64,000 nt of DNA from Candidatus Binatia bacterium (lineage in GTDB: Bacteria; Desulfobacterota; Binatia; HRBIN30): contig JBBRSP010000003.1 of NCBI GenBank assembly GCA_038245295.1, positions 64,001-128,000 of the forward strand, in the 5' to 3' direction. Both the position numbers and the translations under genes were made by a program. Under the pieces are notes generated by a model. The model saw nothing but the letters and a program-made list of their open reading frames with translations, was not told where the DNA came from and searched no databases. Shown here in pieces: positions 31,586-45,240 of the stretch (within the stretch, counting starts at the first letter, position 1; each line of letters begins with the position of its first letter).

Positions 31586-31589
31586 TTGA

Positions 31590-31635
31590 AAACGTCCCAA
31601 AGGGGGGCAGGAGTCATCCTGCACGTGGGACGTTT
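31590..31635. promoter_or_regulatory. 10-bp inverted repeat upstream of the LuxR-type regulator
   Basis: AAACGTCCCA-26 nt-TGGGACGTTT. Confidence 0.4.
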
Positions 31636-31651
31636 GTATTGGGGGAAAGCG

Positions 31652-33886
31652 ATGCCCGCAACTTCTGTAGCGAGTCGGCTTCGCCGTGGGGGCAAGCCTG
31701 TCGGTGCGGTGACCACATTGAACAGTCTACGGCGCGCCGTGCGCGATGCGGTCGCCGGGGGCGGCGCCGATGCGGTGCCGCAACTGTGTCAGGCCCTGCT
31801 GGCACTCGCCGCCGCACAATGGCGCCGCGGCGACATTCCGCATGCGCAACGTGCCTATCGGCGCGCTGCCAAGGTGGCGGAGGAAGCCGGCCTGGCGGAT
31901 GAGTTGGCGCAAGCCGCTCTCGGATTCGGGGGGCCGGCGCCGCGCCCGCAGTTCTTCGATGAGCAAGCGACACTGATCGAGCAGGCCCTGCGCCTCTTGC
32001 CGCCCCAGGATAGTGCCTTGCGGGCTCGATTGCTGGGCGTGTTGGCGGTGACGTCGTCGATGTCGCGATCCGCCACGGATCGACGCGCCATGGTGACGCA
32101 GGCACTGACGATGGTCCAGCGGCTGGACGACAGGGACGCCCGAGCAGCGGTGCTCGATGCGGCTCACCGGGCCTGCTGGGAACCTGAGTTTCTGCAGGAG
32201 CGCCTGCGGCTCGCCGACGAGATCCTCGCACTGGCGCGCCGTCAGCGCGATCTCAAGCGTGAGATCCTCGCCTATTCGCTGCGATTCACGGATCGCGCCG
32301 AGGCTGGTGATGTCCATGGAGTCGACGCGGACCTCCTCAAGTTCGGCGAGCGTGCCGACGAGCTTGGCCATCCGGTCTACGAGCAGCCGGCGGTATGGTT
32401 CTCGACCTGGTGGCGTGCCACGCGCGCCTTGCTGGAGGGGCGCTTCGGCGAGGTCGAGCGCCTGGCTGAGCGCAGCCTGTCGCTTGGCGAACGTGTGCAG
32501 AAAGATCTGGCCAGGCAGAACTACGGAGTGCAGCTGTTTGCGTTGCGACGCGAACAGGGGCGATCGGCCGAGTTGGTGCAAGCGGCGGCGGCCATCGACC
32601 CCACGGCGCGCGGAGCAGGCTGGCGGATCGGTATCGCCGCGCTTTCGGTTCCAACCCTGCAGCAGCGCTACGCCGAGTTCTGGCACGAGCCGAGTTGGCG
32701 CGTTGGCTACGTCGTGGCGTGTTGTGATGGAGGTCTCTTCGATGCGGCTCGCGAGATGTTCGACGAGTTGGCGGAGCATCAGTTTGCTGCCACACTGCAG
32801 GACTCGGCTTGGCTGGCCAGCGTCGCTCTGCTTGCCGAGGTGTGTGTCAAACTCGGCGATGCGGGGCGGGCGCGATTGCTCTACTACGCCCTGTTGCCGT
32901 TCCGTGATCGTTATGTCGTCGTGGGACCGGCATCCTTTTACTGGGGGCCGGTATCGCGAGCCCTCGGTTTGCTGGCTACCGCCATGGAGCAAGGACAAGT
33001 GGCCGAGCAACATTTCGAAGCTGCCATCCAAGCCGCCGAGCGAATCGGGGCATTTCCTTGCCGAGCGCACATCGAGTTTGAGTTGGCGCTAGCCCTGCGT
33101 CATCGCGGCAGTGTGCGAGATCTGGAGCGTTCGACTGCGTTGATCAGCAGCGCGGCGGAATTGGCCGAGCGATACGGTATGGCGCGGCTGCGGCTGCTGT
33201 GTCGGGAGTCGACAGAACGTGTCGTCGAGCCCGCCTCCGAGGCGGGCCGGACGTCCGGCGACAACCGCGTCACGGCCACCGTGGCGGCCCTTCTTGATGC
33301 GATGTCGGATGGAATTGCCTTGATCGATGCCAATGGTGCGGTTCTCTATCTCAACGAGGAGGCGGCGAGCCACGTGCACAGTGGCGAGGTCTTTACAGTG
33401 CGAGGCCGCACGCTTGTGTTGCAGCCAACCCTTCCGCAGGCGTCGTGGCTCGGCGACGCCTTGCGACAAATTGTGTCGGATGGCGCAGCGCTTTGCGCCA
33501 CCGTCGTGCCCAGGCGGCGGCAGCCGGGATTGCGAGTGCTGGTTTCTCGCTTGTCGATCGCGGGCGAATCGAAGCTCGGGGCCTTGATCCTGGTGCGGAT
33601 TGTCGATCCACTGGCCGACCGCGGCATGTGTGTCGATCTGGTCCGCCGGCTGTACGGCCTGACTGCTGCGGAAGCACGCCTGGCGCGGTTCCTCTGTCGT
33701 GGCATGACACTCTCCGAGGCTGCCGCGGAGGCGGGGATCGCGACGAGCACGGCGCGCAATCAGCTCAAGTCCATCTTCGAGAAGACGGAAACGTCTCGAC
33801 AAAGTGACCTCCTGCGCCTTTTGCTATCGAGCAGCGCGGGGTGGCGCATGCCCTTCTCGGAGGACGGCGTCGGCGCGATGCGCTGA
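31652..33886 (+). CDS. TPR-like helical + PAS-like + LuxR HTH transcriptional regulator
   Basis: LLDAMSDGIALIDANGAVLYLN (PAS-like); YGLTAAEARLA...TARNQLKSIFEKTETSRQSDL (LuxR HTH). Confidence 0.85.
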   Translation: MPATSVASRLRRGGKPVGAVTTLNSLRRAVRDAVAGGGADAVPQLCQALLALAAAQWRRGDIPHAQRAYRRAAKVAEEAGLADELAQAALGFGGPAPRPQFFDEQATLIEQALRLLPPQDSALRARLLGVLAVTSSMSRSATDRRAMVTQALTMVQRLDDRDARAAVLDAAHRACWEPEFLQERLRLADEILALARRQRDLKREILAYSLRFTDRAEAGDVHGVDADLLKFGERADELGHPVYEQPAVWFSTWWRATRALLEGRFGEVERLAERSLSLGERVQKDLARQNYGVQLFALRREQGRSAELVQAAAAIDPTARGAGWRIGIAALSVPTLQQRYAEFWHEPSWRVGYVVACCDGGLFDAAREMFDELAEHQFAATLQDSAWLASVALLAEVCVKLGDAGRARLLYYALLPFRDRYVVVGPASFYWGPVSRALGLLATAMEQGQVAEQHFEAAIQAAERIGAFPCRAHIEFELALALRHRGSVRDLERSTALISSAAELAERYGMARLRLLCRESTERVVEPASEAGRTSGDNRVTATVAALLDAMSDGIALIDANGAVLYLNEEAASHVHSGEVFTVRGRTLVLQPTLPQASWLGDALRQIVSDGAALCATVVPRRRQPGLRVLVSRLSIAGESKLGALILVRIVDPLADRGMCVDLVRRLYGLTAAEARLARFLCRGMTLSEAAAEAGIATSTARNQLKSIFEKTETSRQSDLLRLLLSSSAGWRMPFSEDGVGAMR

Positions 33887-33966
33887 GTGCGCGCGCCGAC
33901 CAAGCGCCGAGAGTCGCTACGATACAGACTCGACAGAGGTTGGATTCCCTCCTAGGCTTTTGAGCC

Positions 33967-36900
33967 GTGGTTACAGATCCTGCCCGTGATGCCTGGGCTC
34001 ACCGTTCGCCGTTTGTCGGTCGCACGCATGAGCTCGCCGAGCTACGCCGAGCGCTCGACGACGCCTATGAGCGCCGGACGCGCGTCGTCCTCATTCCGGG
34101 GGATCCGGGAATTGGCAAGACCCGCCTGGCCAACGAAATCGCTGAGGAAGCGGCGCAGCGCGGCGCCGCCGTCCTATGGGGACGCTGCTGGGAAGGCGGC
34201 GGCGCGCCGGCCTACTGGCCGTGGGTGCAGGTGCTGCGTGCCTGCAGTACGCACGAGTCTGTCGATCCGCTGATCGCCGGTGAAGCCGCGGCTCTGGAAC
34301 GTCGCCTGGCTCCGGATACGCGTCGTCAGGCCACCCCGGAGCCGCGTGTCGAACCGACCAGATTCGATCTCTTCGACGAGACCACTCGGCTGGTGCGGCA
34401 CCTCGCCGCCAGCGGTGTCGCCGTGATTGTGTTGGATGATTTGCACGCGGCCGACGAACCATCCCTGCATTTGATGTTGTTCCTGGCGCGTGAACTGCGC
34501 AATGCTTCCGTGCTTGTCGTTGGCACCTATCGCGACGCGGCTACCCGACAATCACCGGCGCTGGCGCGACACCTCGCCGCCTTGTCGCGTGAAAGTCGGG
34601 TGCTGCCGCTACGCGGCCTGAGCGACGCCGAAGTGGGAGAGTTCGTCGCCGCTCTCGTCGAAGCCCCACCTCCGGATACGCTTGTGGACGAGTTGTGTCG
34701 CGTCACGGAAGGGAACCCCTTTTTCCTGGACGAGATCGTGCGTCTGTGGCGTGCCGGCAAAGGACGGAACGTGCCTGACCGGTTGCCGATTCCGGATCAG
34801 GTGCGCGATGCGATCCGCTATCGGCTGGAGCCGCTCGGCGATGCGATTCTCAATGTGCTGCGCGTCGCCGCCGTGTTGGGCCGTGAATTCGAGCAGCGCA
34901 TTGTCGAGCGTCTCGTCGCCGCCGATGCGGCGCCATCGGTGTATCGTTGCTTGACGGAGGCGGTCGCGGCGGGTGTGGTGCACGAGATGCCGACGCAGCT
35001 CGGTCGGTACCGTTTCTCTCATGCCCTGATCGTCGATACCCTTTACGCCGATCTAGGGAGTCCGGAGCGCGCCGCGGTCCATTGCGCCGCGGCGGCCGGG
35101 CTCGAACGCCTGTATGCCGCGGCCCTTGATGCCCACGCGGCCGAGATTGCCGAGCATCACCTGCGCGCCGGGCGCAGCGGTGACGCCCATAGCGCCGTTG
35201 CCTTTGCGCTGCGGGCAGGGCGGCGCGCGATGCGTGTGCTCGCCTACGAAGATGCGGCCTACTGGTTTGAACGTGCCGACAAGGTGATGGACGAGCTTGG
35301 CGCGGAGCCGCTCGCGCAAGCCCAGGTCTGGCTCGATATCGGGGAAGCCCACCGCCTCGCCGGCAGTTTCGCTCAGGCGGCGCCGGCATTTCAACGCGTC
35401 GTTGCCGTGGCACGGCGACACGGGTTGCGCGAGGCATTCGTCGAAGCCGTCCTAGGAATCGGCCAGGTCGCTGCCGAGACGGGTGTTGTCAATGCCAACC
35501 TGGTGGCGTTGTTGGAACAGGCACTGACCTGGCTTCCCGAGGAAGATAGCGCCGTGCGGGTGCGACTCCTCGGTCGCTTGGCGGTGGCATTGTACTTCTC
35601 GCCGAGCGACCCACGGCGCGAACTTGCTAGCCGGGACGCCGTCGCCATGGCGCGCCGCCTGGACGATGCTGGTGTGCTTACGGTGGCGTTGCGGACACGG
35701 CATTTCTCTCTGTGGAAGCCTGGCGCGGCCGAAGAGCGGCTGGCTCTGGCGCGTGAGATGCTGCGTTTGGGGGAACGGATTGGCGACGTCGAAGCGCAGT
35801 TCGGCGGCCTCAACTGGGGTGTGATCGATCAACTTGAGCTCGGGCAAATCCAGGCGGCCCGCGAGGACCTTGCGGCCTATGGTCAACTCGCGGCCGAACA
35901 CCACGCGCCGCGCGAGCAGTGGAATGTTACCCTGCTGCGTAGCGCCCTGGCTTTGTATCAGGGCGATCTGAGCTCTGGGGAGTATTTGGCGAAGACGGCA
36001 TTCGCACTCGGCGACCGCTGGGAAGTCGCCAATGCGGCGCAGTTTCTCAGTGTCCAGACATTCATCTTGTTCCGCGAGCTCGACCGCCTGCAGGAGCTCG
36101 AGGGCAGCGTGCGTACTCTGGTGGAACGCCTGCCGAATCTACCCGTTTGGCGCTGCGGTTTGGCGCTGTTGTATGCCGAGACCGGTAAGAGAGAAGCGGC
36201 GCAGCGTGAGCTGGCGTTGCTGGCGGCCCACGATTTCGCCGACTTGCCGGCGGATGCAAATTGGATTCCCGCCCTTTGCCTGCTCGCCGAGATTGCCGCG
36301 GCCACGAAAGATGCGGCGCGTGCGCAGACTCTTCTTGATCTACTGCGCCCCCATTCCGGCTGTACGTCGGTGTTTGGCACAGGCGCCGCGTGTGCCGGGT
36401 CGGTGACCTACTATCTTGGGTTGCTCGCGGCGACCGTTGGCAAGACCGACGAAGCGGCAAGCTGGTTTGCCGCGGCAGAGCACACTCACACCGAAGCGGG
36501 AGCATTCCCGTGGATCATTCGCGGACACGTCGCCGAAGTTGAAATGGGTCTGCGTTTCGGCGTCGCCGTCGATGCGCCGCTGGCGCGCTTGCATGCCGTG
36601 TTGGATGGCCTTGTTCTGCCGCGCCTGCAACGCCAGGTCGAGGAGATTGAAGCGTCGTTGCGAGAGCGCCGGAAGCCCGGCCCGGCGGCAATCCAGTTCG
36701 AACAAGCGGGGGAGTATTGGTCGTTGCACGGCACCGGGGAGCCATTCCTGCTGCAGGATACAAAAGGCTTGCGCTATTTGGCGCATCTGTTGCGCCATCC
36801 TCGCGACGAGTTTGGTGCCGCGACGTTGCAACAGCTGGGCGAGGGCCACAGCAAGACACGAATCGATGCTGCCGTATGCGCCGAACGTGCGGAGCTAGAA

Positions 36901-37179
36901 GTGCTGCAAAGTGAGTTGGCCGAGGCCGTATCGTTCAACGATCTTGGTCGCATCGAGAGAACTCGGGCTCAGATCAGCGACCTGGCACGCCGGGCGACGA
37001 GTCGCTCGGAAGCCGAGGCGCCGGCAGCGGAAAAAGCCCGGCTGAATGTGACCCGCGCCATCCTGGCGGCGGTGCGTCGCATTCGTGCGCAGGACGAGGT
37101 TCTTGGCCGCTACCTCGCGACGAACGTTCACACCGGCAGCGTTTGTTGCTTCCAGGCGGGTCCCTGGCCGCCGAAGTAG
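33967..37179 (+). CDS. STAND-like AAA ATPase/TPR regulator
   Basis: FVGR, Walker A GDPGIGKT, Walker B VIVLDDLH, GNPFF, TPR-like repeats, C-terminal KGLRYLAHLL...EKARLNVTRAI domain. Confidence 0.88.
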   Translation: MVTDPARDAWAHRSPFVGRTHELAELRRALDDAYERRTRVVLIPGDPGIGKTRLANEIAEEAAQRGAAVLWGRCWEGGGAPAYWPWVQVLRACSTHESVDPLIAGEAAALERRLAPDTRRQATPEPRVEPTRFDLFDETTRLVRHLAASGVAVIVLDDLHAADEPSLHLMLFLARELRNASVLVVGTYRDAATRQSPALARHLAALSRESRVLPLRGLSDAEVGEFVAALVEAPPPDTLVDELCRVTEGNPFFLDEIVRLWRAGKGRNVPDRLPIPDQVRDAIRYRLEPLGDAILNVLRVAAVLGREFEQRIVERLVAADAAPSVYRCLTEAVAAGVVHEMPTQLGRYRFSHALIVDTLYADLGSPERAAVHCAAAAGLERLYAAALDAHAAEIAEHHLRAGRSGDAHSAVAFALRAGRRAMRVLAYEDAAYWFERADKVMDELGAEPLAQAQVWLDIGEAHRLAGSFAQAAPAFQRVVAVARRHGLREAFVEAVLGIGQVAAETGVVNANLVALLEQALTWLPEEDSAVRVRLLGRLAVALYFSPSDPRRELASRDAVAMARRLDDAGVLTVALRTRHFSLWKPGAAEERLALAREMLRLGERIGDVEAQFGGLNWGVIDQLELGQIQAAREDLAAYGQLAAEHHAPREQWNVTLLRSALALYQGDLSSGEYLAKTAFALGDRWEVANAAQFLSVQTFILFRELDRLQELEGSVRTLVERLPNLPVWRCGLALLYAETGKREAAQRELALLAAHDFADLPADANWIPALCLLAEIAAATKDAARAQTLLDLLRPHSGCTSVFGTGAACAGSVTYYLGLLAATVGKTDEAASWFAAAEHTHTEAGAFPWIIRGHVAEVEMGLRFGVAVDAPLARLHAVLDGLVLPRLQRQVEEIEASLRERRKPGPAAIQFEQAGEYWSLHGTGEPFLLQDTKGLRYLAHLLRHPRDEFGAATLQQLGEGHSKTRIDAAVCAERAELEVLQSELAEAVSFNDLGRIERTRAQISDLARRATSRSEAEAPAAEKARLNVTRAILAAVRRIRAQDEVLGRYLATNVHTGSVCCFQAGPWPPK

Positions 37180-38281: not shown

Positions 38282-39634
38282 CTACGGCGCCAGCGTCGCG
38301 CCGACTTCCGTCAGCGCATGGTCGAGCGCCGTCACGATGGTATCGATTTCTCGCTCCTTGATGATCAACGGCGGGCACAGCGCGATGGTGTCGACACTGG
38401 CGCGCACGATGACGCCCTGCGCCAGGGTGGCGGCGCGGATGCGCAGCGGGATGTTCCATTCTGGCGGCAACGGTTCCTTGCTCTGCTTGTCGCGCACGAA
38501 CTCGAGTGCGGCCATCAGGCCGGCGGCGCGCACCTCGCCGACGATCGGGTGTCGCTCAAGGGTACGCAGTTTCTTGGCAAAGTAGGGCGCCAGACGGCGC
38601 GTCCGCTGCACCAGCTTTTCCTTTTCTATGATGTCTAGATTCGCCAATCCTGCCGCACAGACGACCGGGTGACCCGAATACGTAAAGCCGTGGTACAAAG
38701 AAAAGTCCGGCCCGGCATCGACCATTGTCTGGTAGATATCCTCCTTCATGAGTACGCCGCCGAGCGGCAGATAGCCGCTGGTCACGCTCTTGGCGAAGGA
38801 GATCATGTCGGGAACGGCCTTCCAGCGCTGTATGCCGAAGTTGTGCCCGAGACGGCCAAAGCCGGTGATTACCTCATCGGCGATCATCAAGACATTGTAT
38901 TTGTCGCAGATGGCGCGGATGCGCTCGAAATACCCGGGTGGCGGAACGATGACGCCGCCCACACCTTGCACCGGTTCGGCAATGAACGCACCGACGGTGT
39001 CGGGACCCTCCTCGAGGATGATGCGCTCGAGCTCGTCGGCACAGGCCAAGGCGCATCCGGGGTACGTCAGCTTGAGCTCACAGCGGTAACAAAACGGTCG
39101 CGCCATGCGCAGAACCCCTGGCATCATCGGCTCGTAGTACTTGTGGAAGTAGGGCAGGCCGGTGAGACTTGCCGAGCCGGTCGACGACCCGTGGTAGGCA
39201 CGTGTCAGCGCCACCATCTTTACCTTGTCGGCTTTTCCCTTGAGTCGCCAATACAACCGCATGAAGCGGATGACGCTTTCATTCGCCTCGGAACCGCCGG
39301 ATGTGAAGGAGACGCGGGTCAGCCCCTTGGGCGCCATCTTGACGATGCGCGTCGCCAATTCCTCGGCCGCCGGAGAGGAGAAGCCGAGGAGAGTCGGAAC
39401 AAATTCGAGGGCCCGTATCTGGCGCGCCGCGGCCGCGGCGATCGTCGGTCGGCCGTGGCCGACAGCAACGTTCCAGAGCGATGCCAGGCCGTCGATATAT
39501 CTATTTCCCTCGTCGTCCCACACGTAGATGCCACGACCCTTCACCAAACGAGTCGTGCCGTTGGCGGCGATCGTCGCCGGCGAGGCAAAGCCGCAAATCA
39601 AGTTCTTCGGGGCGCGACGACGTGGTTTCGGCAT
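38282..39634 (-). CDS. Class III PLP-dependent aminotransferase
   Basis: SGGSEAN, AYHG, EPVQGVGG, DEVITGFGR, AKSVTSGYLPLG. Confidence 0.94.
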   Translation of the reverse strand: MPKPRRRAPKNLICGFASPATIAANGTTRLVKGRGIYVWDDEGNRYIDGLASLWNVAVGHGRPTIAAAAARQIRALEFVPTLLGFSSPAAEELATRIVKMAPKGLTRVSFTSGGSEANESVIRFMRLYWRLKGKADKVKMVALTRAYHGSSTGSASLTGLPYFHKYYEPMMPGVLRMARPFCYRCELKLTYPGCALACADELERIILEEGPDTVGAFIAEPVQGVGGVIVPPPGYFERIRAICDKYNVLMIADEVITGFGRLGHNFGIQRWKAVPDMISFAKSVTSGYLPLGGVLMKEDIYQTMVDAGPDFSLYHGFTYSGHPVVCAAGLANLDIIEKEKLVQRTRRLAPYFAKKLRTLERHPIVGEVRAAGLMAALEFVRDKQSKEPLPPEWNIPLRIRAATLAQGVIVRASVDTIALCPPLIIKEREIDTIVTALDHALTEVGATLAP

Positions 39635-39807
39635 TTCCAGGCTCCCTCCTGCGGCATAGACCTATAGAGTATGGACCGGCATCAAAGGAAGTCGCCAAAT
39701 CCAATACGCTGCGCCGGACGTAGTTTGGATCGAAGTGGTAAGACCAGAGTCGCTTCACGGCGGCGAGAAGGTTACACGGGAGACACGTTGTGGTAGGCGC
39801 CAACTGG

Positions 39808-40227
39808 ATGAGAAAGCGAAGCATCATGCCCAGGCTGGCCTCCGTGGTCATGCTGGCTGCCTTCGCGTTCCAGGCGGGAACGCCACGTGTCGCCGTTCTG
39901 TTTCACGAACATGCCGGCGGTGAGCACGCTCACGTACACACCAGCGACATCGACGCCCTCATCAACGAATTCGCTACCCCGCCGCAGATCCGTGCGCGCA
40001 TCGCCCATCGCGCCGCCAGAGGCCTTGCCCTCGCGGTCGAACATCACAGTGGCCTGCACGCGCACTGGCAACAAGCCTTTCACGGGATCGATCGCCCATC
40101 CGATCCTCCGGCGCTCGCCGTTGCTGGCCTTGCCAGATCCCTCGGCCGCGCGCCGGGCGCTGCCGCCCTTCGAGGCAGTACGCTCGTCCCCCAGGTCCGC
40201 GGCCCGCCCCTCCCCGCCTGCGTCTAG
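39808..40227 (+). CDS. His-rich secreted leader protein with C-terminal RGPP ribosome-arrest motif (CruR/DUF2946-like architecture)
   Basis: 139 aa; N-terminal signal/TM segment, FHEHAGGEHAHVH and EHHSGLHAHW, ends PQVRGPPLPACV; 79 nt upstream of the TonB-dependent receptor. Confidence 0.72.
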   Translation: MRKRSIMPRLASVVMLAAFAFQAGTPRVAVLFHEHAGGEHAHVHTSDIDALINEFATPPQIRARIAHRAARGLALAVEHHSGLHAHWQQAFHGIDRPSDPPALAVAGLARSLGRAPGAAALRGSTLVPQVRGPPLPACV

Positions 40228-40306
40228 AACATACTACCAAAGCAGGAACGGGGACCGGGTTGTCGGTTTCGCAGCACCGCGCCCCGGATGTTCATGGAGG
40301 GAGCGG

Positions 40307-42571
40307 ATGAAACGCATGACTATGGCGCTCGGCGTCGCGACTGTAGCGGTGTGCCTGGGCGCGCCGGCATGGGCACACGACCCGGACAACGGCGACCAGA
40401 CCGTTGCCGGGGCAACGCATGAGACCAAGCTCGACGAGGTTGTCATCGAAGCCAAGAAGCCGGTGTCGGCGGCCTCGTCCGACGAGGTGCGGGCGCGCGA
40501 CTACGAGCTACGCCCGCACGATACGACGCAAGAGATTCTTAATAACCTTCCTGGCGTTGTCGTGGCGCAACACCAGGGCGGCGGCAAAGCGACGCAGTAC
40601 CTCGTGCGCGGATTCGACGCTGACCACGGCACCGACTTCGCCGTCTCCGTCGACGGGCTGCCGGTCAACCTGCCGACACACGCGCACGGCCAGGGGTATG
40701 CCGATTTGAACTTCGTCATCCCGGAGACCATCGAGCGCTTGCAGCTGCGCAAAGGTCCGTACTTTGCCGACCTGGGTGATTTCGCCAATGCCGGTGCCCT
40801 CAACATGGTGACGCGGGATGAGGTGCCGGAGAACTTCGGACGCGCCGAAGGCGGTTCGTTCGGTACACAGCGCTACGTCGCCGCGGTTTCGCCGAAGCTC
40901 AGTTGGACGAAGAACTTGACCGCGGCGCAGGCGTATTTTTCGGACGGACCATTCGTCAATCCGCAACACTACGCGCGCTACAATTTCTTCACAAAGTTTA
41001 CGATCGATTCGTTGCCCGACTCGAAGTTGTCGCTGACGGCAAGTGTGTATCAGGGTGACTGGGACGGTTCGGGCGAAATCCCGCTGCGGGTCGTGCAAGA
41101 CGGCCGCTTGCAGTTGGATCCGGCCGGGACTCCCAATCCGCGAAGCCGCTCGTTCACGCGCTTCGACTCGATCGATCCCACCGAAGGTGGCTCAAGTGAT
41201 CGCGAGAACCTCAATCTTCAATATAACTATACGCCCAGCGCCCGCGACGACTGGTCGTTCCAACTCTACGGCTCGCGCTATAAGCTGCAGCTGTTTAGTG
41301 ATTTCACCTTCTTCAAGGACACGGGGTTGCGATTCAAAGATGCCAACGGCAACTACATCCCCGGCGACGGCATCGAGCAGAACGACTCGCGTCTGTTGTA
41401 CGGTGGGAAGGCCAAGTACACGCGAAACTGGGGCCTCAGCGATCTGCCCGGTCCGGTCCACGACATCGCGATGCAGACAGAGGTCGGTGTTGAAACACGC
41501 AACGACATCATCGACGTCGCGTTGCACCGCCAACTGCGCCGCCAAAGGTTCTTCACGGTGAACGATGTGGCCGTCGAAGAGCACACGTTCAGCGGTTTTT
41601 TGCAGCAGCAGGTATTCCTTACCGACTGGTTGCGGATTGAGGGTGGGTTACGCGGCGACGTCTTCCTCTTCGACGGCAGCAATCGGCTGCCGCAACAAGG
41701 CAACGACCCGAACTTCGACGCTGTGTACGTTGCCGGGAACTCGACCAACTCGATTGTCAGCCCGAAGGCGAGCATCATCTTGACGCCTCTCAACGACACC
41801 GACGTCTACCTGAACTACGGCAACGGTTTTCATTCGAACGACGCGCGCAATGTCCTGTTGGCCAAAGCCAACCCGCAACTGGCCGGAAATGCGACCTCGG
41901 CGTTGGCACGCTCCACCGGCTACGAGCTCGGCGCACGGACCCGCCAGTTCGGCAAACTCGACGTCGCGGCGGCCTTGTGGCTGCTCGATCTGCAAAGTGA
42001 GTTGGTGTTCTCCGGTGACGGTGGCAACCAGGAAACGGCGGCCGGAGGTAGCTTTCAGCCGAGCGGCCCAACCCGGCGCTGGGGCGTCGACTTCGAAACG
42101 CGTTACGAGCTGACCAGTTGGTTGTTCGCCGACTACGACTTGTCGTGGTCTGATCCGCGCTTTCGGAACACCGGCGAGGCCGTGCCGTTGGCCCCAACGC
42201 TGTTGATGAACGGTGGTTTGACGGCCGAGTGGGCGAATGGCTTCTCGGCTGGCTTGCGTGGGCGGTACCTGGGGGATCGGCCCGCCATCGAGGATCGCAG
42301 CCTGACGGCGCGAGGTTATTTCCTGTTGGACCTGTTGGGCAAATACCGTTGGCGCAATATCGAAGTGTCGTTGGTGCTGCTCAATCTGACCGACACGGAC
42401 TGGCGTGAGGCGCAGTTTGCCGACACGACCTGTGTCTTGGGGGAAGTGGGGAAGGGGAACTGCGCCGCCAACCCCGGCAAACAGGGCAGCCAGGGCGATC
42501 CACCGGACAGCATCCATTTCACTCCGGGTAATCCGTTCAACGTGCGCGGCGGCGTCAGTGTCTACTTCTAG
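40307..42571 (+). CDS. TonB-dependent outer-membrane receptor
   Basis: GGAGG RBS, signal peptide, TonB box LDEVVIEA, plug QHQGGGKATQYLVRGFDADHGTD and PTHAHGQGYAD, C-terminal VSVYF. Confidence 0.93.
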   Translation: MKRMTMALGVATVAVCLGAPAWAHDPDNGDQTVAGATHETKLDEVVIEAKKPVSAASSDEVRARDYELRPHDTTQEILNNLPGVVVAQHQGGGKATQYLVRGFDADHGTDFAVSVDGLPVNLPTHAHGQGYADLNFVIPETIERLQLRKGPYFADLGDFANAGALNMVTRDEVPENFGRAEGGSFGTQRYVAAVSPKLSWTKNLTAAQAYFSDGPFVNPQHYARYNFFTKFTIDSLPDSKLSLTASVYQGDWDGSGEIPLRVVQDGRLQLDPAGTPNPRSRSFTRFDSIDPTEGGSSDRENLNLQYNYTPSARDDWSFQLYGSRYKLQLFSDFTFFKDTGLRFKDANGNYIPGDGIEQNDSRLLYGGKAKYTRNWGLSDLPGPVHDIAMQTEVGVETRNDIIDVALHRQLRRQRFFTVNDVAVEEHTFSGFLQQQVFLTDWLRIEGGLRGDVFLFDGSNRLPQQGNDPNFDAVYVAGNSTNSIVSPKASIILTPLNDTDVYLNYGNGFHSNDARNVLLAKANPQLAGNATSALARSTGYELGARTRQFGKLDVAAALWLLDLQSELVFSGDGGNQETAAGGSFQPSGPTRRWGVDFETRYELTSWLFADYDLSWSDPRFRNTGEAVPLAPTLLMNGGLTAEWANGFSAGLRGRYLGDRPAIEDRSLTARGYFLLDLLGKYRWRNIEVSLVLLNLTDTDWREAQFADTTCVLGEVGKGNCAANPGKQGSQGDPPDSIHFTPGNPFNVRGGVSVYF

Positions 42572-42575
42572 GCCG

Positions 42576-43334
42576 ATGCCCCAGCAACTGTCCTCAACGA
42601 CCCGCTCGCCCGCTCTCGCTCCTGTGCGAGCGCGGGCGACGGCGGCTTCCGTCGCACTCCATCTCGTCTTGCTCGGGCTGGCATTTCTGTTGGGGCGGCA
42701 GTCGACCACACCACCGCCGATTCAGATTCGGTTGGTGTACGTCGAGCCCAAGGTGATCGATGCCCCAGCCCCCGCGCCGCCGCCGCCGGCTGCGGAACCG
42801 GCCCAAGCCGCACCGATTGAGGTGCCGCAGACGATGCCCCACAGGGCAGCCGAGAAGCCGATCGATCCGCCGCAACGCAAACATGTGATCGCCGCCAAGA
42901 AGCCGCCGGCAGCGCAGCAGGCGTCGCCACCGGCGCCGGATGCCGCTGCTTCAGATGCAGCCGTTGGTGGTCTCGAGGGTGGCGTGGTCGGTGGGGAAGT
43001 CGGCGGCAAAGAGGGCGGCCGAATTGGTGGCCAAGGTGATGCGCCTGTGCGTGAGGATCAGGTGGCACATCCGCCGACGGTCGTGTCGCGCGTCGTGCCG
43101 ACCTATCCCGCCATGGCACGGGCCCGCGGCATCGAAGGGCGTGTTCTGTTGCGAGCCATCGTTGATCGTGACGGCCATGTAGAACCGGCGGTGGAGGTCA
43201 TCGAATCGATGGCGCCGTTCGATGTCCCGGCAGTCGATGCCCTGCGCCAGTGGCACTTTCACCCGGGAAGCGACGCCGACGGAAAGACGGTCCGCGTGGT
43301 CGTCGAGGTGCCGATGCGTTTTCAGTTACGTTGA
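42576..43334 (+). CDS. tonB: Energy transducer TonB
   Basis: TM motif SVALH, Pro-rich linker, C-terminal PTYPAMARARGIEGRVLL...QWHFHP. Confidence 0.9.
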   Translation: MPQQLSSTTRSPALAPVRARATAASVALHLVLLGLAFLLGRQSTTPPPIQIRLVYVEPKVIDAPAPAPPPPAAEPAQAAPIEVPQTMPHRAAEKPIDPPQRKHVIAAKKPPAAQQASPPAPDAAASDAAVGGLEGGVVGGEVGGKEGGRIGGQGDAPVREDQVAHPPTVVSRVVPTYPAMARARGIEGRVLLRAIVDRDGHVEPAVEVIESMAPFDVPAVDALRQWHFHPGSDADGKTVRVVVEVPMRFQLR

Positions 43335-43342
43335 ATCAAACT

Positions 43343-43366
43343 GGTAGGCGCAGGCTTCAGCCTGCG
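43343..43366 (+). repeat. GTAG-type REP-like palindrome
   Basis: GGTAGGCGCAGGCTTCAGCCTGCG, identical to the copy at 9967. Confidence 0.85.
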
Positions 43367-43387
43367 GTGTGCTCCGATAATTTGCTG

Positions 43388-43690
43388 TCAGCCAAGCACG
43401 GCGCGGAATTGCCGGAGCAGCTCGTGGCGCAACTGTTCGGGCACATCGTCGTCGGTGAGTTTGGCCAGGTCACTGCGGTACCAGTGACAATCCTTGACGT
43501 AGAAATAGGAAAACACACTGTCGTAGGCGACCGTCGCGGTGAGAGCGTAGTCGCCGGCCCGCATCGCCAGCACGCGTTTGTCCGAGGCGATGACAAAACG
43601 CTTGTCGTGCATGGCGCGAAACAGGTTCAGTCGTAAACCCGTGTAGCGACGCAAACACGTCCATCTCGCTTCAAGCGAGTGCTGGCTCAT
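43388..43690 (-). CDS. Hypothetical protein (100 aa)
   Basis: ORF fills the gap between the REP and tldD; no recognisable motif. Confidence 0.45.
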   Translation of the reverse strand: MSQHSLEARWTCLRRYTGLRLNLFRAMHDKRFVIASDKRVLAMRAGDYALTATVAYDSVFSYFYVKDCHWYRSDLAKLTDDDVPEQLRHELLRQFRAVLG

Positions 43691-43785
43691 CGAGCCGCTC
43701 CATTGCGCGCTTCAAACACTCTATGTGGCTCCGTGTAGATCCGTATGGTAGTCAGAAAAAAAACCTGAGATCAAGGAACTTCTCA

Positions 43786-45240
43786 ATGCCGACCCCCCCG
43801 ACCACTGTCGATCCCGTCCGCTTCTTTTTGGAGCGCTTCGGGCTATCGCACAACCAACTCGAAAATACCGTCGCCTCGGCCATCGCCCGCCGCGCTGACT
43901 ACGCTGATCTCTACTTCGAATTCCGTACATTACAAAGTCTCAGCTTGGAAGATGGAATCGTCAAGAGCGCCGGACAGCACGTGGCGCAGGGCGCCGGCGT
44001 GCGCGTCGTCGCCGGCGACAAGACCGGTTACGCGCACTCCGACGACGTTAGCATTGAGAGTCTGCAGTTGGCCACGCGGACGGCTCAAGCGATCGCCCAG
44101 CAGTCGAGTGATCCGCGTTCGGTGGCGGTTCGCCCGATGGTCGCGGCGCACGATCTCTACACCCTGGCGCGGTCGCCGTTCGACATCCGGCTGGCCGACA
44201 AGGTCGACCTTCTCAACCGCATCGATATCGCGGCGCGGCGTCACGACTCGCGCATCAAGAACGTGATGGCCTCGGTGGCGGTCGAAGAAAAGTACATCGT
44301 CATCGTAGGGTCGACCGGCTTTATCATCGGCGACGTACAACCTCTCGTACGCCTCAATGTCACCTGCATCGCCGAGGAGAATGGCCAGCGCCAACAAGGC
44401 ACCTATGGCGGCGGCGGTCGGGTAGAATTCGAGTTTCTCCTGCAAGAGGACCGCTGGCTGCGCTACACGCGTACCGCTGCAGACCATGCCCTGCGCAACT
44501 TGAAAGCGGTGGATGCCCCAGCGGGATCGATGACCGTCGTGCTGGGCCCGGGTTGGCCCGGCGTGCTGTTACACGAGGCCGTTGGTCACGGACTGGAAGG
44601 CGACTTCAATCGCAAGCAGATCTCGGCGTTCTCGGGCCTGATCGGCAAACAGGTGGCGTCGGAGTTGGTGAGTGTCGTCGACGACGGGACGATGCCGAAT
44701 CGCCGCGGTTCGTTGAACGTCGACGACGAAGGCACACCGACCAGCCGCACGGTGCTCATCGAGAAGGGTATCCTGCGCGGTTACCTGCAGGACCGCATGA
44801 ACGGGCGATTGTCGGGAATGCCGCTCACAGGAAATGGCCGGCGCGAGAGTTTTGCGCACATGCCGATGCCGCGCATGACGAACACGTTCATGTTGGCCGG
44901 CGAGTCGACGCACGACGATATCATTCGGTCGGTCGACCGCGGCTTGTACGCCGCCTACTTCGGCGGCGGCCAGGTCGACATCACCAGCGGCAAGTTCGTC
45001 TTCTCGGCGAGCGAGGCCTATCTGATCGAGGGTGGTAAACTGACGCGTCCCGTGAAGGGTGCAACCTTGATCGGTAGCGGCCCCGAAGCGCTCAAGCGTG
45101 TCTCTATGGTGGGTAACGATCTTGAGCTCGACGAAGGCATCGGCACTTGCGGCAAGGACGGCCAATCGGTGCCCGTTGGGGTCGGTATGCCGACGGTGCG
45201 AATCGACGGCATGACCGTCGGTGGAACACAGGCGAGCTGA
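43786..45240 (+). CDS. tldD: Metalloprotease TldD
   Basis: ADLYFE, GPGWPGVLLHEAVGHGLEGDFNRK, TGNGRRES, CGKDGQSVPVGVG. Confidence 0.96.
   Translation: MPTPPTTVDPVRFFLERFGLSHNQLENTVASAIARRADYADLYFEFRTLQSLSLEDGIVKSAGQHVAQGAGVRVVAGDKTGYAHSDDVSIESLQLATRTAQAIAQQSSDPRSVAVRPMVAAHDLYTLARSPFDIRLADKVDLLNRIDIAARRHDSRIKNVMASVAVEEKYIVIVGSTGFIIGDVQPLVRLNVTCIAEENGQRQQGTYGGGGRVEFEFLLQEDRWLRYTRTAADHALRNLKAVDAPAGSMTVVLGPGWPGVLLHEAVGHGLEGDFNRKQISAFSGLIGKQVASELVSVVDDGTMPNRRGSLNVDDEGTPTSRTVLIEKGILRGYLQDRMNGRLSGMPLTGNGRRESFAHMPMPRMTNTFMLAGESTHDDIIRSVDRGLYAAYFGGGQVDITSGKFVFSASEAYLIEGGKLTRPVKGATLIGSGPEALKRVSMVGNDLELDEGIGTCGKDGQSVPVGVGMPTVRIDGMTVGGTQAS

Follow-up and report, generated by a model that had tools for sequence, protein, structure and literature searches.

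Our combined findings suggest that a histidine-rich open reading frame (ORF) of 139 amino acids (aa), encoded upstream of the genes for a TonB-dependent receptor and TonB in the genome of a Candidatus Binatia bacterium, is probably a cis-acting ribosome-arrest leader that is released by metal, switches on a receptor for nickel uptake under nickel scarcity and stands in for the regulator NikR. The ORF lies in a 64,000-nucleotide (nt) stretch of assembly GCA_038245295.1 (contig JBBRSP010000003.1, positions 64,001 to 128,000; the whole stretch is hereafter called the window). It is a member of a conserved, uncatalogued histidine-based family, and its proposed function is drawn from comparative sequence analysis.

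In the proposed mechanism, the ribosome would stall at the C-terminal RGPP, as expected from the class of this motif. At the stall, the distal HxH strand would be just out of the exit tunnel, held there by a fixed tether of 43-44 residues, and is predicted, with support from covariation, to pair with the strand carrying H33 and H35, uniting the conserved histidines. Without metal the stall would persist, the ribosome would cover the Pro-Pro-Leu codons and the receptor gene's Shine-Dalgarno (SD) sequence would be freed; the persisting stall would probably block Rho as well, and receptor and TonB would be made. Binding of Ni(II) would complete the fold, pull on the chain and end the stall, switching the operon off. 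The leader would in this way replace NikR, which is missing from the source genome. A precedent for the metal-driven release step is the zinc-dependent folding of ADR1a, which releases SecM arrest (passages of PMC4571824). That stalling turns uptake on had been proposed in a first-pass annotation of the window, and we count this logic as supported for the predicted stall.

A conserved leader with two histidine motifs

What had been read from the DNA at the outset was confirmed in the sequence: the ORF, its 11 histidines, most of them in two clusters, RGPP (residues 131-134) followed by five residues to the C-terminus, and a gap of 79 nt between the leader stop codon and the ATG of the receptor-tonB pair (Table 1). 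The leader has a single cysteine (residue 138) and no CxxC. Conservation of a histidine leader with C-terminal R[AG]PP before homologous receptors had been set as the test beforehand, and the prediction held. Of 76 non-redundant receptor loci with sufficient upstream DNA, a set that includes the window and omits 9 truncated loci and 3 duplicates, 43 have an ORF with R[AG]PP at its C-terminal end just upstream of the receptor; the corresponding numbers are 4 for the opposite strand and 3 for A[AG]PP. An RSPP version of the leader was present in 4 of the 33 loci negative for R[AG]PP. Receptor homologs occur in 146 of 401 genomes of class Binatia, and a leader profile, built on 36 leaders hand-picked for an intact first motif, matches 94 of the 401 (tallies over class genomes, and no other result here, draw on the unpublished genomes G177, G208, G340 and G392). 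Against 1.84 billion representatives the same profile matches 401 clusters (E<=0.001), with the invariant residues persisting at 16-24% mean identity, and the same leader is present at loci L003 and L021. This conservation already refutes the reading that GC-rich DNA left the frame open by chance, to which we give practically no weight, even though 73 open frames of the genome carry R[AG]PP near the stop (at least 80 codons, motif within 15 residues of the stop). Among these 73 frames, the window leader comes first and a DUF2946 ORF second when ranked for an upstream hydrophobic segment.

The family, relatives included, falls below every Pfam and NCBIfam cut-off, and the window leader has no match in either database at E<=1. 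Weak matches to Zip, ZrgA and RcnA are explained by histidine-rich composition. DUF6769, found on 35% of one ESM Atlas cluster at rank 11, was given no support by Pfam scans; the clusters nearest the leader in that atlas are unnamed (0.95-0.97), and a fold search with the leader model was uninformative (best Z 2.7). More distant histidine-rich leaders with a different distal motif precede the same receptor in Myxococcota (L010:2456-2884, L012, L013, L016 and L017), and the leader of Archangium ends in PQGP, not R.PP. At L020 and L068 the first histidine motif lies in another frame, through assembly errors or decay.

Spacing and motifs were tallied in the best 150 representatives, with the 145 that carry R.PP scored for spacer and CxxC. 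The C-terminal motif is RAPP in 68, RGPP in 65, RSPP in 11 and RLPP in 1, with none in 5; CxxC occurs in 0 of 145. From the distal HxH to the arginine the distance is exactly 43 residues in 142 of 145 (44 in the window leader), whereas the linker between motif 1 and the distal HxH varies from 28 to 122 residues in the same relatives and thus provides an internal control against the bias of the profile toward like spacing. In a 137-row alignment, which drew on 136 of the 150 hits, H33, H35, H44 and H84 are invariant and H42, H86 and P26 nearly so; the invariance of the R, P and P of the arrest motif is partly by selection. The proposal that the histidine clusters are the functional element is refined to two conserved motifs, as distinct from the histidine-rich bulk, which varies freely.

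Two AlphaFold models contain only two strands, at about residues 30-34 and 83-87, so that these two must pair, and the strongest covarying pairs link both strand segments (R27-Q88, z 9.9; F32-A85, z 5.1). We infer that the metal site is split and that its last strand would reach the tunnel mouth as the ribosome arrives at RGPP.

Nickel as the candidate metal

The first-pass annotation had left the metal as nickel, zinc, cobalt or another; adjacency to nikR, exclusion between NikR and the leader, and neighbouring nickel genes narrow this to nickel as the likeliest candidate. The only recurrent metalloregulator gene beside the receptor is nikR (9 loci); where both positions were listed (25 genomes), it is <=2 kb away from the receptor gene in 20. 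The 146 receptor genomes comprise 73 with the leader only, 30 with NikR only, 3 with both and 40 with neither. Because kin are not independent, this exclusion amounts to a handful of swaps, one of them within a genus (leader in G258; NikR in G189, G221 and G270). Other recurring neighbours of leader and receptor loci are TonB/ExbBD, NicO, HupE/UreJ and DUF4198. At L106 the leader is the first gene of a run of DUF4198, a barrel protein and HupE/UreJ, the receptor being absent; at L016 it stands between a preceding NicO and the receptor; and receptors without a leader come after NicO, CbiM-DUF4198 or ureD.

A receptor homolog was also present in 51 plasmid records, and we took neighbourhoods from six. 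Near the homolog were nikR beside hypDEB in Afipia, nikR in Methylomagnum, hoxN (4.4 kb upstream) in Cupriavidus pHG1 and HupE/UreJ in Hymenobacter, while the Sphingobium homolog had no telling neighbours; the sixth, from Methylorubrum, is considered below. None of the six records held a His/RxPP leader, and the gene before the C. necator receptor was rejected as a leader, as it reads as an FBPase-like fragment.

NikR had no match in the source genome (96.6% complete), which encodes NiFe hydrogenase, urease, LarA and LarC; a Ni-SOD search gave no match anywhere, controls included. No cobalamin or NiCo riboswitch was found at gathering score in 18 related loci, over which Rfam gave only two tRNA hits, and a riboswitch thus fails to explain the leaderless loci. 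A clade of 11 receptors from one family (L055-L065) has upstream regions without leader, nikR or Rfam riboswitch.

Output, sensing side and rival explanations

Both the minimum-energy and the centroid fold of the locus pair the Pro-Pro-Leu codons with the SD region of the receptor gene. Across the family, 33 of 81 loci carry CCTCC where the ribosome would stall, versus 11.0 +/- 3.0 expected (maximum 19 in 500 synonymous shuffles), an excess absent from five upstream windows; the control CCACC gave 15 versus 9.9. In 22 loci CCTCC is formed by both arrest prolines. Pairing of the stall site with its cognate binding site reached -20.8 versus -19.4 kcal/mol when shuffled (73 loci, after 8 with doubtful starts were dropped), and coupling of CCTCC with GGAGG within loci was not significant (18/16/13/26, p 0.10). 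Translational coupling of leader and receptor is thus modestly supported at the sequence level. Involvement of Rho in the output is possible: Rho is encoded in the genome, and the spacer is richer in C than in G (0.40 versus 0.29; C>G in 77 of 81 loci), a pattern absent at fourfold sites.

The N-terminal export signal proposed at first is partly borne out, with a basic N-terminus and a hydrophobic helix that may be signal or anchor; both are present in 23 of 37 leaders scored. Twelve leaders of one family (L093-L104) keep both histidine motifs and are missing the hydrophobic N-terminus. They have a GTG or ATG 3-5 codons before the first histidine, six with an in-frame stop within ten codons upstream, and all 12 have a spacer of 39, ending in RPPP (9), RGPP (2) or RSPP (1). 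Their next gene encodes a different TonB receptor with an N-terminal carboxypeptidase-regulatory-like domain. A TAnnnT box lies 6-12 nt before the start in 7 of them, and their mRNA is possibly leaderless; before signal-bearing leaders the box was not found at assigned starts (9/75 overall, 7 of those signal-less). Leaders in between, whose N-terminus is weakly hydrophobic and whose spacer is 42, occur at L092:2449-2931 and L105:2597-3004. The 12 signal-less leaders, together with the dispensable signal of the copper-responsive leader CruR (passages of PMC9426467), argue against export being essential, which weakens the earlier claim that an exported nascent chain does the sensing. As the copper sensor CutF needs its signal and an extended stretch of 43 residues could be long enough to get to the periplasm, we lean only slightly toward a cytoplasmic rather than a periplasmic sensing side.

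Several observations weigh against the leader being a nickel-released arrest switch. The AlphaFold models are of low confidence (pLDDT 67 and 72, pTM 0.34 and 0.38). Shuffled sequences fold as well as the locus does (z -0.17); blocking the ribosome footprint leaves the opening energy of the ribosome-binding site unlowered at the window locus (10.3 versus 10.5 kcal/mol) and gives relief of >2 kcal in no more than 27 of the 73 loci, against 10 in the control; one control window likewise gave a cognate excess (p 0.002); CCT at the stall site could be favoured for stalling itself; and the C-richness of the spacer, missing at synonymous sites, provides no independent Rho signal. Forty of the 146 receptor genomes have neither regulator. 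The exclusion between NikR and the leader depends on about two independent NikR groups: when 75 receptors were placed on a tree, loci adjacent to nikR fell into two groups, besides one locus that has both regulators. Hydrogenase is unenriched in leader genomes (11 of 94 versus 44 of 401 overall; 3 of 55 NikR genomes) and LarC is near-universal (348 of 381 genomes, a tally that also includes the unpublished G213, G343, G350 and G371), so that gene content fails to single out leader genomes. Histidine sites also bind zinc and cobalt, and those made of histidine only are promiscuous. One nikR locus (L071) adjoins an ABC-3 (Zn/Mn-type) permease, and the Methylorubrum plasmid homolog lies near iron-ABC and cobM. 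These last points, along with genes for a metal-sensitive repressor and for cation efflux that follow the receptor at L104, the genome's two Fur-family genes, and HupE/UreJ, NicO and DUF4198 neighbours that serve nickel and cobalt alike (passages of PMC9973294; Pfam), would fit the same arrest-and-release switch with zinc or cobalt, or any of the three metals, as its physiological ligand. We consider this unlikely, though a serious contender, given that nikR is the sole recurrent metalloregulator gene beside the receptor and that the 18 loci lack a cobalamin or NiCo riboswitch.

A different switch would operate as in CutF or SecM, with the chain pulled by SecYEG and the stall prolonged by periplasmic metal or export stress, so that output rises with metal or reports secretion. 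The basic N-terminus and hydrophobic helix of many leaders fit this, as do the Sec signal that CutF requires, its stalling with copper (passages of 10.1101/2025.02.05.636593) and a tether that, extended, may just reach the periplasmic side. However, metal induction has the wrong sign for importers that NikR normally represses, 12 leaders retain both histidine motifs and a fixed spacer without a signal, and CruR functions without its own, which together make this option quite improbable. Still less probable is a secreted histidine-rich metallochaperone or metal store for the receptor, in which RGPP would be incidental or merely limit synthesis. The signal-like N-terminus and histidine-rich linkers of up to 122 residues would suit such a protein, and the covarying contacts could reflect its mature fold; yet a fixed distance from HxH to R.PP across an unconserved Ala/Pro spacer would be purposeless once the protein is released, the leader holds the first position before the receptor, RGPP and RAPP belong to the 4-mers that bacterial proteomes avoid most (passages of PMC12992588), and neither the synonymous-level anti-SD signal nor the signal-less subfamily fits it.

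Table 1 Features of the leader-receptor-tonB locus, in window coordinates
Feature	Position	Strand	Basis
Leader ORF of 139 aa with two His motifs, putative arrest peptide released by metal	39808..40227	+	ORF reading, family conservation
N-terminal hydrophobic helix, residues 7-24, signal or anchor; conserved Pro26-Arg27 next; missing in the 12-locus subfamily	39826..39879	+	AlphaFold helix; Pro 97% in relatives
Motif 1, HxHxGGxHxHxH; H33, H35, H42, H44 conserved, H40 64%	39904..39939	+	Alignment of relatives
Variable linker, 39 aa in the window leader, often His-rich in relatives	39940..40056	+	Relatives compared
Distal motif HxHxQxxF (H84, H86), 44 residues ahead of R131	40057..40080	+	Relatives compared
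RGPP, arrest-type motif	40198..40209	+	Motif class from passages of PMC12992588
Anti-SD stretch in Pro-Pro-Leu codons, predicted partner 40296-40306	40204..40213	+	Locus fold (not significant alone); family CCTCC enrichment
SD region of receptor gene	40296..40306	+	Sequence reading
TonB-dependent receptor, 754 aa, nikR/hydrogenase-linked subfamily; plug motif HAHGQGYAD at 40679-40705	40307..42571	+	Plug PF07715 E 2e-15
TonB, 252 aa	42576..43334	+	TonB_C E 5e-16

Neither a sigma-70 promoter nor an intrinsic terminator was found in 39600-40450, Rfam gave no match at E<=1 across 39500-43800, and the receptor has no solved close relative (best, BtuB plug, E 2e-8). On the minus strand, a 100-aa ORF without Pfam or NCBIfam match (43388-43690) is convergent on tonB and shared with the nearest relative (L020). 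Two tandem ORFs of 766 and 1070 aa, read as large regulators with TPR-like/ATPase and helix-turn-helix features, occupy 31586-37179 on the plus strand. At other loci, small recurring families without Pfam matches follow receptor-tonB (L006:6583-7758, L068:6138-6662, L087:7114-7383 and L080:6052-6465; 2-6 loci each).

Comparison with known arrest leaders

Taken further than the nickel-released switch itself, and only tentatively, the family may constitute a nickel-specific nascent-chain sensor in which a split six-histidine site is completed at the tunnel exit and the arrest proline codons double as the anti-SD of the receptor gene. Such a sensor would replace NikR across much of Binatia, its 43-residue signal-bearing and 39-residue signal-less forms maybe reading different compartments, and would mark uncharacterised outer-membrane nickel importers. 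The experimentally studied metal-sensing leaders that we found in the literature, CruR and CutF, are all copper- and cysteine-based, and passages of the papers on both describe the way in which metal binding brings about release of arrest as unresolved. With six histidines, a 43-residue ruler and a natural signal-less variant, the family offers a sharply delimited system for testing a second metal and the folding-force model. It would explain the control of uptake in NikR-less bacteria with several nickel enzymes, and it makes a large receptor subfamily candidate nickel importers. Direct tests are made possible by its fixed spacing, its split site, the exchange with NikR and the variant without a signal.

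Among the closest known systems is CruR (Bp2923, DUF2946/PF11162) of Bordetella pertussis (passages of PMC9426467), whose arrest has been demonstrated (passages of PMC12992588). Both leaders are of about 140 aa, with an N-terminal export signal and a C-terminal R[AG]PP, both are the first gene before a TonB-dependent receptor with a long intergenic region, and both would follow the logic of stall as on. In CruR the metal motif lies 45 residues from RAPP, a spacer conserved to one or two residues in which a five-residue insertion blunts regulation, compared with 43-44 in the histidine leader. The leader differs in having HxH...HxH plus a distal HxH in place of CxxC, that is, a bipartite site with a free-length linker; in its nickel rather than copper context, copper-related downstream genes not being among its recurring neighbours; and in its receptor family. 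The anti-SD in its stall codons suggests translational coupling, whereas the output of CruR is Rho-dependent termination. The proposal of a CxxC-free histidine version of the CruR plan is thus upheld by a conserved histidine leader, C-terminal R[AGS]PP and CruR-like geometry. The comparison with the DUF2946 profile envisaged with it yielded no score: the window leader has no match to PF11162 at E<=1, and among its relatives one weak match came up in a set of 36 (E 0.029) and one in a set of 137 (E 0.081). A genuine DUF2946/CruR-type ORF (CPIC 45 residues ahead of RAPP) is encoded in the same genome (G000:C4:132103-132450 (-), locus L049), upstream of a signal-bearing coiled-coil protein outside assigned families; against it the leader profile aligned 6 columns (probability 0.2%). 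Copper and histidine versions of the leader therefore coexist in the source genome.

Histidine-only CutF-like clusters 14 and 17, beside HupE/UreJ, have been proposed as Ni/Co sensors (Ozturk et al., bioRxiv 10.1101/2022.11.11.516240 = PMC9973294, in passages). Like these small, signal-bearing, PP-ending leaders, the window leader is <150 aa with a signal, PP in the last 15 residues and a His-only motif, and the leader at L106 also heads a HupE/UreJ operon. Both clusters are reported beside HupE/UreJ; the family, which may overlap with them, nearly always precedes TonB receptors in Binatia, as in the window, and in one of the 81 leader loci examined HupE/UreJ is the third gene after the leader. 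Small ORFs with RAPP or RGPP upstream of TonB-dependent receptors have been described as a class (Fujiwara et al., PMC12992588, in passages), with His/Cys metal sites suggested for Streptomyces members; the window leader matches it at the level of the class, being <300 aa long and signal-bearing, with RAPP/RGPP at the C-terminus and a TonB receptor downstream. Unlike our family, that class comes with no family definition, spacer rule or metal in the passages available, and 'nickel' and 'Binatia' appear 0 times in the main text. CutF of Rhodobacter capsulatus (passages of 10.1101/2025.02.05.636593) likewise senses metal through its nascent chain, its stall unmasks an SD, and it ends in PPP, as do 9 of the 12 signal-less leaders. 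Unlike the histidine leader, CutF has CxxxC, responds to copper, requires its signal, stalls more with metal and controls a detoxifying oxidase.

SecM, ApdA and ApdP monitor protein export and have no metal motif, unlike the histidine leader; their arrest is released by force, and a downstream ribosome-binding site is unmasked. The leader shares with them the RAGP/RAPP/RGPP arrest chemistry (motif class in passages of PMC12992588). Our literature search, which included passages of PMC12914433 and left most subscription papers outside its coverage, found no experimental nickel-sensing arrest leader and no account of the histidine-leader family. The kind of system is already known and its histidine and nickel version has been foreseen in print; the family is a variant on the CruR plan.

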